Below are positions 21,410 to 26,470 of a DNA stretch of 64,000 nucleotides, piece after piece (positions within the stretch are counted from its first letter, which is position 1; every line of letters begins with the position of its first letter). This DNA comes from Fusobacteriota bacterium (GTDB lineage: Bacteria > Fusobacteriota > Fusobacteriia > JAPLKR01), in NCBI GenBank assembly GCA_026387965.1, contig JAPLKR010000103.1, positions 529 through 64,528 of the forward strand, read 5' to 3'. A program made the translations under genes and the position numbers. The notes under the pieces were generated by a model. That model ran no database searches. It had not been told where the DNA came from and worked only from the letters and a program-made list of their open reading frames with translations.

Positions 21410-21895
21410 TCATATCAAACCACTTCCATTGTTCACTTCAGAAAAATGCTTTCTTAAACTCTTTATAATCGCTACCATAGATTCTTCCTCTATTAATTCC
21501 CTACTAAAATTCTCAACACCCTCATGATAAGGGAAATTCTCTCGCATTTTAGGATACCAATCTCCCGGACGGGGTAAATCGAGTGTTTTTCTAGGTATCA
21601 TATGCAAGTGCAGATGCATAACCGTTTGACCTGCACATTCGCCATCTTGAATGGTTAAATCAAATCCCTCTGCGTTAAATAAAGATTTAAATTCCTCGAC
21701 ACATATTTGTGCTAAATCAATCAGTTCATGTCGAAGTTCTGAATTTAACTCTAAAAAGGATATATAGTGATGTTTTGGCACAATCAAACTATGCCCCGGT
21801 AGAATGGGGGCAATATTATAGATTACTCTAAAATTTTCACTTTCATAAAACTGATTATTCAGAATTTCTTCACTACAAAATACGCATTTCTTCAC
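21410..21895 (-). CDS. HIT (histidine triad) family hydrolase.
   Basis: HLHLHMIPR histidine triad and CVFC N-terminal motif. 161 aa. Confidence 0.7.
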   Translation of the reverse strand: MKKCVFCSEEILNNQFYESENFRVIYNIAPILPGHSLIVPKHHYISFLELNSELRHELIDLAQICVEEFKSLFNAEGFDLTIQDGECAGQTVMHLHLHMIPRKTLDLPRPGDWYPKMRENFPYHEGVENFSRELIEEESMVAIIKSLRKHFSEVNNGSGLI

Positions 21896-22170
21896 ATCTC
21901 CCCCTTATTTACACAATTTGCACATACTATAGCAAATCAAAAACAAAACTGGATACTTTCCAATATGTCACCCTGAGCGAAGCCGAGAGATCTATCCCTG
22001 TAAATTTCGAGATGTCTCCACGTAGGTCGACATGACAACATTGTCAAGGTTTGTTTTGAAACTGCTCTAGTAAAATTTACTTCACTATTAATTATTAGAG
22101 GAGATGTTAAGGATTAACTGCACAAAACACCTGTATACTTAACTAAAGAATAACACTTCGGAGGTGTGCA

Positions 22171-22344
22171 GTGAAAAAAATTACTCTTATATTAATTCTT
22201 ATCATTATTGTTTTAACAATATCCTCTACAAGTTTTAGTACTATGTTTACGCCTAGTAATGTAAACCCTAAAATTCAGCAACAATTTCAATCGCAGCAAA
22301 TGAACTTCTTCCTTACGGATAATAATCAGCAAATGTTTAATTAG
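22171..22344 (+). CDS. Small (57 aa) membrane or secreted peptide with a Gln-rich tail. Hypothetical.
   Basis: GTG start 4 nt after GGAGGTG. VKKITLILILIIIVLTISSTSFS hydrophobic N-terminus, then ...PKIQQQFQSQQMNFFLTDNNQQMFN. Followed by a terminator. Confidence 0.35.
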   Translation: MKKITLILILIIIVLTISSTSFSTMFTPSNVNPKIQQQFQSQQMNFFLTDNNQQMFN

Positions 22345-22370
22345 CCGTTTTATGATATATAATATATCAT

Positions 22371-22397
22371 AAAAAAATCCCTCGAGAGAGGGATTTT
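22371..22397. terminator. Bidirectional terminator, also serving the OMP gene on the minus strand.
   Basis: aaaaaaATCCCTCgagaGAGGGATtttt. Confidence 0.7.
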
Positions 22398-22404
22398 AAT
22401 GTTT

Positions 22405-23568
22405 CTAGAAAGCGTAGTTAAATCCTGTATAGATTTGCCCACCATAGTTAGTAGAAGAGTTTCCAGCATGATTTTGAATCATCGAAGTGCCTAAGCTATT
22501 TGTATAGTATTTTGCATATACCTGAGCATTTGTTGTCCAAGTTAAGCAATGGGTAATATTCATTGTATAAGCGATACCTGGGTAAAAACAAAGTTTTTGA
22601 GCTCCAGGCGTCGCTTGTGTCGTTTGAATACTATCATTACTTATTGTATTGAAAATATAGTAACGTGTATCAAAGTTCAGGTTAAGTCCTGGTATAGATG
22701 CAACATTATAACTTAACATTGCAGGATGAATAATGATATCATTGTTCGTCTCGTTATTTACAGCATTTGAAAGGATAATGTAGTTGTCATTAGCCTGTTG
22801 TAATTGAACCCCTGTTCCCAATGTGAACTGAGAATTTACTTGTCTTGTATACATAGGGAAAGCTGAGAAATACTCTCCATTTGCTCCATTCCAATTTGCT
22901 CCAGCAGTATTATAACCAGAAGATTGGTTAATTGCTGTTTGTCCATTAGCACTTCCTATTACTTGAAATGTTAACGCAAGTCCATATGTGTTTGCTCCAT
23001 TAATATATGTTAAGTTTGGTGCTATTTGGTAACCAGTTACTAATACTGGAGATATATTATATGTTCCAGTTGTTGTAGTATATTGACCATTCGATTGAGA
23101 TCTCCAGTTAAGGTAGCTTACGTTCAATGAAGTTGTTAGTCCATTTTGGAAGTTATATGCACCTGTCATTCCCCATGTGTTTAACATTACATTTTGGTTT
23201 CCTGCACCCGCTGTATTTGCATAAGCACTATTAATCTTACCTGTGAAATCTGTTGCACCATTTAAACTCCAAGTCCAATTTCCAGTTTTATAGTTTAAAT
23301 TTAGTGCATTTGGGTTATCAAATGCAGGTGATCCACCTTGATCTGGCTTAACTCCACCCATAACTGAAACATTTCCTGTGAAATCTGGTACAGTATTTAC
23401 AGGGGATGCTGCTACTGCTGCTGCATTAATTGTATTTGCTGCTGCTGCAGTATTTGATTCTGTAACGATATTTTGTGAAATTGTGTTTGCCATTGGAGCT
23501 GTTACACCTGCTAATGACACTGCAGCTGCTATTGCAAAAATCGCTGTTACTAATAATTTTTTATTCAT
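22405..23568 (-). CDS. Outer-membrane beta-barrel (porin-like) protein, copy 1: signal peptide, C-terminal aromatic residue.
   Basis: Signal peptide MNKKLLVTAIFAIAAAVSLA. Alternating amphipathic Thr/Asn/Tyr-rich strands. Terminal ...YTGFNYAF (C-terminal Phe typical of BAM substrates). Strong RBS AAGGAGA. Confidence 0.6.
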   Translation of the reverse strand: MNKKLLVTAIFAIAAAVSLAGVTAPMANTISQNIVTESNTAAAANTINAAAVAASPVNTVPDFTGNVSVMGGVKPDQGGSPAFDNPNALNLNYKTGNWTWSLNGATDFTGKINSAYANTAGAGNQNVMLNTWGMTGAYNFQNGLTTSLNVSYLNWRSQSNGQYTTTTGTYNISPVLVTGYQIAPNLTYINGANTYGLALTFQVIGSANGQTAINQSSGYNTAGANWNGANGEYFSAFPMYTRQVNSQFTLGTGVQLQQANDNYIILSNAVNNETNNDIIIHPAMLSYNVASIPGLNLNFDTRYYIFNTISNDSIQTTQATPGAQKLCFYPGIAYTMNITHCLTWTTNAQVYAKYYTNSLGTSMIQNHAGNSSTNYGGQIYTGFNYAF

Positions 23569-23834
23569 ATATATCTCCTTATTTTGTTTTCAACTGTAAT
23601 TACTTTATTCGCATTACAGTCTTTATGTTATTATGATATCATAATTTTTTTTAATTTGCAATAATAAATATGTGATTTATGTGTATTTTTACGCACTTTT
23701 CTGTGTATTCTTAATTTTTATTTATACAGTTCTATTCACTGGTGTAACTAAAAATCATATATTTCATTACTTGATGGGCACGCAATTGACAGGAAAAACA
23801 CTCTTTATTAAGAGTTCTTCATATTTTAGGTAAT

Positions 23835-24935
23835 TTAAAAGCTATAATTAAATCCCGAATAAATTTGTCCTCCATAGTTTGTAGAAATATTACCCTTCCC
23901 ATTTGGAGTCTGACCTATTTGACCATTCATATTATTAGTATACCATTTACCATACACTTGTGCATTTGTGACCCATGACAGACTCGAGGTAATACTCTTC
24001 GTATAAGCTATCCCTGGGTAGACACAAACTCTTGTTGAACCTGCTATCGCTCCGATATTGGTTTGCATTGGATCATTTTTAACCGTATTATTATAATAAT
24101 AACGGGTATCTAAATTCAGATTCAATCCTGGTATAGAAGCAACATTGTAACTTAACATTATAGGATGGAGAATAATATTGTTATTTGAATCATTATCAAC
24201 TGCTTGAGTCAAAATCAAATAATTATCGTTAGCTTGCTGAATTTGAACCCCAGTTGAATATGAGAAAGCTGTACTCACTTGGTTGGTATACATTGGAAAA
24301 ATCGAAAATGACTCGCCGTTTTGACCATTCCATGTTCCTGTTATCCCATTAGGAGGGAATCCTGCAGAACTAGATACGGCTAATATTCCATTTGAGCTTC
24401 CTAGAACTTGATAATACATTGCTAATGCATAAGTGCTATTTCCATTGACATAAGTCATTGTTGGCGCCAATTGATATCCCGTTACGAGTACTGGGAAAAT
24501 TCCAGCTGCTGGTGATGAAGATTGTGATCTCCAGTTAAGATAGCTTACATTCATCGATGTGGTCAATCCATTTTGAAAATTATAACCACCTGTGAATCCC
24601 CATGTATTTAACATCGTATTTTGGTTACCTGCGCCCATGGCATTTCCGTAACTGCTATTTGACATCCCTGTAAATTCTGTTGCACCATTTAAACTCCAAG
24701 TCCAGTTTCCTATTTGATAGTTTAAATTTATCGCGTTTGGATTGTCATATTGAGGTGATTTCCCTTGATCAGGCTTAATTCCACCCATAACTGAAACATT
24801 TCCTGTAAAAGGAAATGTAGATGAATTTCCTGCGGCTACAGTCGAATTAATAGTGTTGGTAGTTACAACCACATTGTTATTTGCCCCTGCATTTTGCGAA
24901 ACTGTTGAAGCAGAGGACGAGCTTTGAGTTATCAT
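23835..24935 (-). CDS. Outer-membrane beta-barrel paralog, copy 2. N-terminally truncated: no signal peptide, no RBS. Possibly a pseudogene or silent cassette.
   Basis: About 55% identical to copy 1 after the first 40 aa (FTGNVSVMGG.KPDQG.SP..DNPNA.NLNY..GNWTWSLNGAT.FTG ... GFNYSF). An in-frame TAG lies immediately upstream of the first Met. No SD-like sequence. Confidence 0.5.
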   Translation of the reverse strand: MITQSSSSASTVSQNAGANNNVVVTTNTINSTVAAGNSSTFPFTGNVSVMGGIKPDQGKSPQYDNPNAINLNYQIGNWTWSLNGATEFTGMSNSSYGNAMGAGNQNTMLNTWGFTGGYNFQNGLTTSMNVSYLNWRSQSSSPAAGIFPVLVTGYQLAPTMTYVNGNSTYALAMYYQVLGSSNGILAVSSSAGFPPNGITGTWNGQNGESFSIFPMYTNQVSTAFSYSTGVQIQQANDNYLILTQAVDNDSNNNIILHPIMLSYNVASIPGLNLNLDTRYYYNNTVKNDPMQTNIGAIAGSTRVCVYPGIAYTKSITSSLSWVTNAQVYGKWYTNNMNGQIGQTPNGKGNISTNYGGQIYSGFNYSF

Positions 24936-24992
24936 ATCTGAAAATGTTGCGGTTATAACCTATCCAAACTCTTTAATATCGCTGAAATAGTC

Positions 24993-25024
24993 AAAAAAAT
25001 CTGCCAGAAGGCAGATTTTATTAT
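24993..25024. terminator. Bidirectional terminator downstream of the rubrerythrin gene.
   Basis: aaaaaaATCTGCCagaaGGCAGATtttatt. Confidence 0.7.
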
Positions 25025-25578
25025 TTTGTCCCAAAGTATCTGTTAAGCAGTCCTAAAAAAGCTTTACCATGTCTTGCTTCATCTTTACACATTTCGTGAA
25101 CTGAATCATGAATTGCATCAAGGTTAAGTTGTTTTGCTTTTGTAGCAATGGCTTTCTTACCAGCACAAGCTCCATTTTCAGCTAATACTCTTCTTCTTAA
25201 GTTCTCTTCAGTTGAAGTAGAGATGATATCATCTTCTCCTAAAAGTTCAGCAAATCTTGCTGCATGCTCTGCTTCTTCCCAAGCAATTGATTTATAAGCT
25301 TCTGCAATTTCAGGGTACCCTTCTCTTGAAGCTTGTCTTGCCATTGCAAGATACATTCCAACTTCAGTGCATTCCCCCATGAAGTTTGCTTTCAGACCTT
25401 GTACGATTTCAGCATCAGCACCTTTAGCTACACCAATTACATGCTCATCAGCCCAAATTAAATCTGTTCCTACAATTTCAGTGAATTTCTCAGGACCTGC
25501 ATGACAATGTGGGCATACTTCTGGAGCTGCATCACCTTCATGAATATAGCCACATACTAAACATCTAAATTTTTTCAT
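25021..25578 (-). CDS. Reverse rubrerythrin: N-terminal rubredoxin-like domain plus C-terminal ferritin-like di-iron domain.
   Basis: [27 protein letters not shown] (CxxC...CxxC) at the N-terminus, then the rubrerythrin E...ExxH helices ([16 protein letters not shown]). Start at ATG 25578 with RBS AGGAGG. Confidence 0.8.
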
Positions 25579-25675: not shown

Positions 25676-26470
25676 CTACTTTTTTACAGCAATATACTTT
25701 AAATAATTTATTGAAAAGTTTTTTAAGTCTTCTTTAGTAAGCAGACTTTTTCCACCACCAACATAACGGTTATAAAGCTTTTCAAAAGCGAGTTGTTGAC
25801 TTTTCACTCCACTTTTTTTATCTTGAACAAGATTATAATACTTCGATCCATTATTATTAGTTTCTGCCGAAAGGCTTACTGAGAGAATCTCGCTCTTTTT
25901 AAAGCGAAAATGGTAAATAGAGTTTGAAATTCCGACACTTGAGATCATATTATCACTTAAATTTGCATAATGTGAACTGGCAATGCCTGTAAGTGCCATT
26001 AGTCCATACGGAGTGATATTTTGGCTGTATATAACACTTCCGTTCGTAACAAGAACAGATGTTACGCCACCTGCCGTTCTATCCCCATCGGCAATATCTC
26101 TTGAGTAATAAAGTGTGTTCCCACTCATCGTCACAGATATAATTGAGGTGAATACGCCGCTACCTCCACCATCATAAATTATTTCAACAATATAATCTAG
26201 CCCTATTATTCCTGCACATTTATACAAGAACGTCTCTCCCTGAGGGCTGTTATATTGATAAAATCCTGCTTTTATTGTGGAAATTTGCGCAGTGGGTGAT
26301 GTGAAAATTTGAGAACTTTTAGCAGCTTGTTCCATATTCATAAAAGGCAGCATCGTTTGTGCATTCACAGGCTTTCCTTGATATATAATAGCTCCTCCGC
26401 TCACTTGACTAGCTGAGAAGCTTAGAACTGCGATAAATAAAGCAAGTAATACTACAATAATTTTTTTCAT
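25676..26470 (-). CDS. Secreted hypothetical protein (264 aa).
   Basis: Signal peptide MKKIIVVLLALFIAVLSFSASQ. No recognisable domain. Confidence 0.4.
   Translation of the reverse strand: MKKIIVVLLALFIAVLSFSASQVSGGAIIYQGKPVNAQTMLPFMNMEQAAKSSQIFTSPTAQISTIKAGFYQYNSPQGETFLYKCAGIIGLDYIVEIIYDGGGSGVFTSIISVTMSGNTLYYSRDIADGDRTAGGVTSVLVTNGSVIYSQNITPYGLMALTGIASSHYANLSDNMISSVGISNSIYHFRFKKSEILSVSLSAETNNNGSKYYNLVQDKKSGVKSQQLAFEKLYNRYVGGGKSLLTKEDLKNFSINYLKYIAVKK

Follow-up and report, generated by a model that had tools for sequence, protein, structure and literature searches.

Two kinds of described locus provide the closest points of reference for the one considered here. The first comprises Neisseria pilE/pilS, Borrelia vlsE/vls and Anaplasma msp2, where, as in the present case, a promoterless, signal-less copy lies beside an expressed surface paralog. 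The second is gene loss in arrays of porin or other outer-membrane protein (OMP) paralogs; strain-specific loss of porin genes occurs in Gram-negative bacteria. The locus lies in a 64,000-nucleotide stretch of a Fusobacteriota metagenome-assembled genome (contig JAPLKR010000103.1, positions 529 to 64,528; hereafter the window), in which two tandem paralogous ORFs, copy 1 and copy 2, follow a rubrerythrin gene. Its likeness to the first group is superficial: there is a single such copy, with neither flanking recombination repeats nor conversion tracts, and the truncation is not conserved even within the species. With porin loss in paralog arrays it shares the loss of the 5′ end and expression signals with an intact allele in sister strains, the retention of a neighbouring paralog as the working copy, and a further paralog that is already nonsense-pseudogenised in the sister strains; it differs in that its proteins form an orphan family that lacks annotation and comes from an uncultured lineage of Fusobacteriota. 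Copy 2 is very probably a 5′-deleted allele of an ordinary, signal-peptide-bearing OMP gene, that is, a nascent pseudogene arising from a strain-specific deletion.

Three contigs carry the comparison within the locus: L008 (SRR21524771) and L009 (SRR21524759), both from the same species, and L010 (SRR20698640), a separate Logan assembly. L008 was reached via two gene fragments from a profile search, L009 via a cluster look-up for copy 2 that gave the 387-aa member P0008, and L010 through an exact match of the window's rubrerythrin protein. In window coordinates the features are as follows.

22171 to 22344, plus strand: conserved gene for 57 aa, its N-terminus resembling a signal peptide, running towards copy 1; in all relatives it closes the array of paralogs on the distal side
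22374 to 22397, no strand assigned: bidirectional terminator hairpin shared by copy 1 and the 57-aa gene that converges on it (dG -13.7, z -3.8)
22405 to 23568, minus strand: copy 1 (c1), ORF for an intact 387-aa precursor of the orphan OMP-like family
23575 to 23580, minus strand: AAGGAG, the Shine–Dalgarno sequence (SD) of copy 1, 6 nt ahead of the ATG
23633 to 23661, minus strand: promoter-like TTGCAA-17-TATCAT, including an extended TG, ahead of copy 1
23789 to 23824, minus strand: weak hairpin with a T-run after it, beyond the 3′ end of copy 2 (dG -8.3, z -1.8); kept in L009
23835 to 24935, minus strand: copy 2 (c2) as an ORF of 366 aa, its ATG being internal Met22 of the full-length 387-aa gene (allele in P0008/L009 and in L008)
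24936 to 24953, minus strand: remnant of the signal-peptide c-region, codons 16-21 (TATFSD), now untranslated; identical to L008 1763-1780 and L009 507-524
24953 to 24954, no strand assigned: deletion junction, where identity to the same-species full-length allele ends
24954 to 24993, minus strand: 40-nt segment from the rubrerythrin terminator to the junction, holding an in-frame TAG at 24962-24960
24996 to 25019, minus strand: intrinsic terminator hairpin of the rubrerythrin gene, then a T-run to about 24990 (dG -13.8 kcal/mol, z -5.6)
25021 to 25578, minus strand: rubrerythrin gene, the upstream neighbour of copy 2 (Pfam PF21349 and PF02915)

Copy 1 is the working gene of the locus. The preliminary description had placed two tandem OMP-like paralogs here, both of which are present on the minus strand, and had credited copy 1 with a strong ribosome-binding site, a signal peptide and a GFNYAF end, all of which hold: besides the AAGGAG, its hydrophobic, basic N-terminus (MNKKLLVTAIFAIAAAVSLAG) carries 2 Lys in residues 1-6 and reaches a maximal Kyte–Doolittle mean of 2.74 over 11 aa. 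The promoter-like stretch is 100% kept in L009 and alignable upstream of paralogs in contigs L001 and L003. The codon bias of copy 1 (ENC 39.9; fraction of C-ending NAY codons 0.33 versus a background of 0.17, P=2e-5) is typical of highly expressed genes, suggesting that it is likely the major expressed member.

Copy 2 shares the C-terminal signature, as GFNYSF, and little of what precedes a working gene. No SD was found in the 25 nt before its ATG (GGTTATAACCGCAACATTTTCAGAT), no promoter-like site between the rubrerythrin terminator and that ATG, and no start or hydrophobic segment in any of the three frames upstream; the in-frame TAG stands 8 codons ahead of the ATG. The N-terminus of the ORF, MITQSSSSAS, has a maximal hydropathy of 0.59 and contains neither Lys nor Arg. 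The distance from the rubrerythrin terminator hairpin, which is kept in contigs L002 and L007 of a relative, to the ATG is about 58 nt, close to the 55 nt first estimated. The letters thus agree with the initial reading that copy 2 has no signal peptide, SD or promoter and starts after a TAG, and support the view that it would not be exportable as it stands. We infer that in this strain copy 2 is neither expressed nor exported.

What kind of protein do these genes encode? Neither copy matches any sequence in Pfam, NCBIfam or the PDB, two scans of GTDB species genomes found no family member, and Rfam gave nothing credible on 21800-25100. The family amounts to 5 clusters in a set of 5.8e9 proteins and to 3 representatives in one of 1.84e9. 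Its members nevertheless have a consistent layout: signal peptide features recur in copy 1, in paralogs A, B and C of the relative, in P0002 and in P0008 (2 K/R and a hydrophobic core at KD 2.65-3.19), a 40-residue low-complexity stretch rich in Ala, Thr and Asn follows the signal peptide, and every member has GFNY[AST]F or G[IF][SND]Y[LVT]F at its C-terminus, a Phe-ending beta-signal. Two AlphaFold2 runs, both of low confidence (pLDDT 28.9 and 35.2), gave an almost all-beta model with about 14-16 long strands. The best 50 Foldseek matches listed are all outer-membrane barrels or outer-membrane beta-barrel complexes, although weak (E of 1.6e-3 or higher, TM about 0.3), the best being V. cholerae OmpT (6ehd), VhChiP (5mdo), CymA, OmpG and FadL. 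The signal peptide, the ...GFNY[AS]F end and the all-beta prediction with long hairpins recall the general diffusion porins and other 14-18-stranded outer-membrane barrels, from which the family differs in its lack of a sequence match to Pfam, NCBIfam or PDB families and in its low-complexity stretch. The family is thus probably an outer-membrane beta-barrel, and "porin-like OMP" a reasonable term for what is predicted.

The decisive evidence on copy 2 comes from the same-species contigs, both of which contain the complete gene. L008 1763-2169 aligns to window 24953-24547 at 99.0% and L009 507-1989 to window 24953-23471 at 98.5%, in each case without gaps, the latter alignment extending through copy 2 and the spacer between the two genes into the first part of copy 1. 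Both contigs cease to match the window sharply at 24953, codon 16 of the full-length gene, and the alignment finds no similarity upstream. Beyond this point L008 and L009 read AGGAGGTAAAT-ATG, encoding MKIKILLFAVFTVVATATFSDMITQ..., so that their copy 2 is a 387-aa gene with AGGAGG, ATG and the signal peptide MKIKILLFAVFTVVATATFS. The L009 protein, P0008, has 2 K/R and a hydrophobic core within the family range and groups with the window's 366-aa protein when clustered at 90% identity; further upstream of its gene L009 has a promoter-like TTGAGA-17-CATAGT. The window's copy 2 is accordingly short of its promoter region, AGGAGG, start codon and 15 of some 17-20 signal-peptide codons. An upstream start with a signal peptide, which the preliminary description had named as evidence against its reading, does exist in the sister strains; in the window the corresponding sequence is deleted. 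An intact allele in close relatives and a sharp breakpoint, as expected of a pseudogene made by 5′ deletion, are both present.

Upstream of copy 2 in L008 stands an A-type paralog that is already a pseudogene: three stop codons interrupt its frame, and some 115 additional codons follow its signal peptide. Nucleotides 1-1762 of L008 have no counterpart at this place in the window, and the window allele therefore lacks at least 1.76 kb. On the other side of the junction, the segment 24954-24993 is presumably what survives of the spacer that once followed the terminator. A weak likeness links its last 21 nt to a MITE end in the relative's contig L002 (17/21, P about 0.02, uncorrected); the segment does not match the window's own MITE-like element, and in local alignments against all signal-peptide-coding regions it scored no better than shuffles. 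The VITATF string upstream of the copy 2 ATG is ruled out as a remnant of the family's LVTAIF signal peptide: the true remnant is TATFSD only, from a different signal peptide, as L008 and L009 make plain. Separately, window 22008-22070 recurs inverted at L008 nt 1-63; an inversion of the array was considered, and the recurrence is more plausibly put down to a MITE-like element that is present in several copies and has terminal inverted repeats.

Two alternatives survive somewhat better than the others, both of them unlikely. One is an assembly error, in which the sequence around the rubrerythrin terminator was falsely linked to an internal part of copy 2 in the MAG contig and the genome has the full gene. 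The source being a metagenome assembly, such an error is conceivable, all the more because the paralogs and MITE-like repeats of the locus break other assemblies, L008 itself ending inside such a repeat. However, L010 reproduces window 25891-24681 across the junction with 1 mismatch in 1211 nt, although it may derive from the MAG's own reads, and no paralogous or repeated k-mer covers the junction, the longest exact repeat of the junction region elsewhere in the window being 12 nt. A mis-join is improbable on both counts. The other takes the deletion as real and proposes that truncated and full-length alleles coexist in natural populations because loss of a minor porin is adaptive, for example through phage or predator receptor escape; the stump could then occasionally recombine with copy 1, and the locus would represent an on/off polymorphism of a surface protein. 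This idea, too, we regard as a long shot.

A wider view of the array comes from a more distant relative, represented by contigs L002, L003, L005 and L007, whose rubrerythrin is 94% identical in amino acids to that of the window and whose ordinary genes are saturated at synonymous sites relative to it. The gene order there is 60aa - 264aa - rubrerythrin - A - B - C - 57aa - HIT - permease, with flanks as in the window. Paralogs A (351 aa), B (390 aa) and C (379-381 aa) are all intact, each with its own SD and signal peptide, and the same slot in the window holds only copy 2 and copy 1. The locus thus reads as a paralog array losing genes: three intact in the relative, two plus a pseudogene in the sister strains, and one plus a stump in the window. 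A deletion of A and the 5′ end of B had first been inferred from the distant relative alone; the outline was right, and the breakpoint could be placed only by the same-species contigs.

Copy 1 and copy 2 themselves are old. BLASTP gives 64% identity over 343 aa (E 1e-151) and the family alignment 62%, rather than the 55% originally put forward, and this places their paralogy far beyond chance. Because copy 2 is 74-75% identical in amino acids to paralog B of the relative, and copy 1 is 70% identical to B, against the 62% between the two copies, they are to be read as old paralogs, and a recent duplication is excluded; pS between them is 0.65.

The substitution pattern indicates that copy 2 was under purifying selection for nearly all its history, until very recently. 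Against B, pN is 0.167 and pS 0.73 (saturated), and ordinary syntenic genes have pS of 0.68-0.78; private changes at conserved sites show no excess, at 14/164 in copy 2 versus 16/166 in copy 1. It is because these values are in line with syntenic genes, and because private substitutions are not in excess, that we regard copy 2 as long constrained. From codon 16 to the stop, the retained sequence differs from the L009 full-length allele at 9/1119 nt; six of the differences are nonsynonymous, in 5 codons, at least two of those on the L009 side. Point mutations alone would be expected to introduce about 56 stops per unit of neutral divergence, and the intact 1.1-kb ORF therefore argues for a young deletion. 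Codon usage sets copy 2 (ENC 44.9, C-ending NAY 0.20) and paralog A (46.5, 0.17) beside the genomic background (44.8, 0.17), and copy 1, B, P0002 and C apart from it (ENC 37-41, C-ending NAY 0.33-0.50), which suggests that copy 2 has long been a minor, less expressed paralog.

These observations fit a simple sequence of events. A single deletion of at least 1.76 kb would have taken the A-type paralog next to the rubrerythrin gene, already dead; the spacer with the promoter region and AGGAGG of copy 2; and codons 1-15 of that gene (MKIKILLFAVFTVVA). The remainder of copy 2 now stands fused about 40 nt behind the rubrerythrin terminator. Transcription of copy 2 would now depend on read-through of that terminator, translation would begin at the internal Met22 without an SD, and any product, devoid of a Sec signal, would find the outer membrane out of reach. 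It is this want of a transcription start, SD and Sec signal of its own that makes copy 2, in all likelihood, a nascent pseudogene, and its ORF would still be intact because the event is very young. Of the preliminary description's "decaying duplicate", then, the dying gene stands and the recent duplicate does not, given the 62% identity, the pS of 0.65 and purifying selection until very recently.

Could copy 2 instead be a silent donor cassette, feeding gene conversion into the expressed copy 1 and so varying the surface porin in the manner of pilS/pilE or vls/vlsE, as was also proposed? Several features invite the thought, as the truncation removes exactly the expression and export signals and spares the mature-protein ORF, codon usage is unbiased yet the protein sequence is conserved, and strain differences in the family cluster in few indel-rich segments. 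We nonetheless consider it highly unlikely. The full gene, with SD and signal peptide, is present in L008 and L009, and the truncated state is therefore no conserved design. There is only one such copy: the search for additional truncated copies returned c1 and c2 alone, by tblastn of the window and as the two family proteins of this MAG in the database. Between c1 and c2, sliding-window identity ranges over 44-83% with no elevated tract, on the background of the divergence given above, and their longest identical run, 29 nt, lies inside a block that the B-type paralogs (c1, c2, B and P2) have all kept. The comparison among strains for mosaic patterns likewise found none, the 9 differences between the window and L009 in c2 being scattered, and the neighbours are housekeeping genes with no recombinase or mobile genes nearby. 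In the relative's paralog C, strain variation does cluster in three indel-rich segments, as expected for surface loops; a donor-allele test on these variants found no donor signature from other paralogs. Since a very young deletion predicts an intact ORF, no selection on copy 2 as a cassette is needed.

Equally doubtful is the notion that copy 2 is still made, through rubrerythrin read-through and the internal ATG, and serves outside the envelope or reaches it by another route. The ORF is intact and its ATG lies 58 nt past a terminator that is possibly leaky; against this, the SD is absent, the hairpin of the terminator is a strong one, a young deletion accounts for the intact ORF, and, to our knowledge, every known outer-membrane beta-barrel needs a Sec signal. 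Least credible of all is an old duplicate of copy 1 that has long been drifting as a pseudogene, which would account for the missing start context and a codon bias below that of copy 1 but not for a copy 2 whose identity to another species' B (74-75%) exceeds that to copy 1 (62%), a pN/pS far below 1, 366 codons without stops or frameshifts, and 99% identity to an intact allele.

The 5′-deletion reading has a practical consequence for annotation. NCBI, where the two proteins of this "Fusobacteria bacterium" MAG are MCX5774288.1 (copy 1) and MCX5774289.1 (copy 2), carries the latter (NTX05_06750) under the plain name of hypothetical protein; the entry ought to be marked as a 5′-truncated pseudogene whose true product has 387 aa and a signal peptide. 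The case also illustrates that same-species contigs, once found, can settle the nature of an oddity resembling a silent cassette. For the family itself, the locus would represent gene loss in progress in a lineage-restricted group of OMPs, an ordinary phenomenon that calls for no new mechanism.

First, the coding sequence and the surroundings of copy 1, the intact porin-like gene of the pair, differ in their affinities, as emerges when its position and spacer (window 22405-23663) are compared with the corresponding parts of a more distant relative, which carries three signal-bearing paralogs named A, B and C (L003 1281-2734 and L002 1713-2965). The array slot adjoining the convergent 57-aa gene is held by copy 1 in the window and by paralog C in the relative, and the spacer upstream of copy 1 can be aligned with those of C and of P0002, a further family member. 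The coding sequence of copy 1, however, resembles B (70%) more than it does C (56%). This combination of a C-like slot and spacer with a B-like coding sequence suggests a past gene replacement or conversion, or alternatively differential loss within the array.

Second, individual members of the array vary between strains. In the sister strain (contig L008), the A-type paralog at 186-1620 is a pseudogene whose one continuous frame is interrupted by stop codons at 456, 861 and 1554, so that gene callers break it up into three ORFs (P0006, P0007 and a 90-aa ORF); it carries about 115 additional codons, placed after the signal peptide and before the barrel part. Between two strains of the more distant relative, paralog C (L003 1377-2516 and L005 1317-2462) differs at 137 of 1233 aligned nucleotides, gaps included, and the differences cluster in three indel-containing segments, probably surface loops, which also vary most among the paralogs. 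The intergenic spacers of the locus, for their part, contain MITE-like elements, each roughly 150 nt long and bounded by terminal inverted repeats, for which an Rfam search of window 21800-25100 gave no credible match:

Window 21925-22072: MITE-like element; arms of 29 nt, 76% complementary
L008 1-63: partial copy of the window element, 90% identical, at the contig end upstream of the dead A paralog
L002 1436-1593: element of different sequence but similar build, inserted in the A-B spacer
L005 2819-2965: second occurrence of the L002-type element, between the 57-aa gene and HIT

The L002-type element is missing from the A-B spacer of L007, which measures 152 nt as against 320 nt in L002.

Third, several other genes of the window deserve mention:

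22171-22344, plus strand: 57-aa gene; signal-peptide-like N-terminus; 65% amino acid identity to the relative
25676-26470, minus strand: 264-aa protein gene; signal-peptide-like N-terminus; 71% identity
26472-26654, minus strand: 60-aa protein gene; 57% identity
30699-31613, minus strand: Fe-dependent alcohol dehydrogenase ORF

The first three are lineage-specific, with synteny kept between window and relative, and family searches with them gave no credible match. The dehydrogenase ORF, only 304 aa long, matches no more than positions 4-109 of the C-terminal domain model, which has 194, and may represent a truncated or a split gene. Searches of the GTDB r232 species representatives detected no member of the OMP family and no counterpart of the 264-aa neighbour, and the window's lineage appears to be missing from that set.

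Finally, codon usage divides the paralogs strongly (window 22405-24935 and relatives): C-ending Asn, Tyr, Phe and Ile codons occur at two to three times the genome frequency in copy 1, B, C and P0002, whereas in A and in copy 2, the 5′-deleted gene, they remain at background level. This contrast offers a prediction of which members of the family are major porins.
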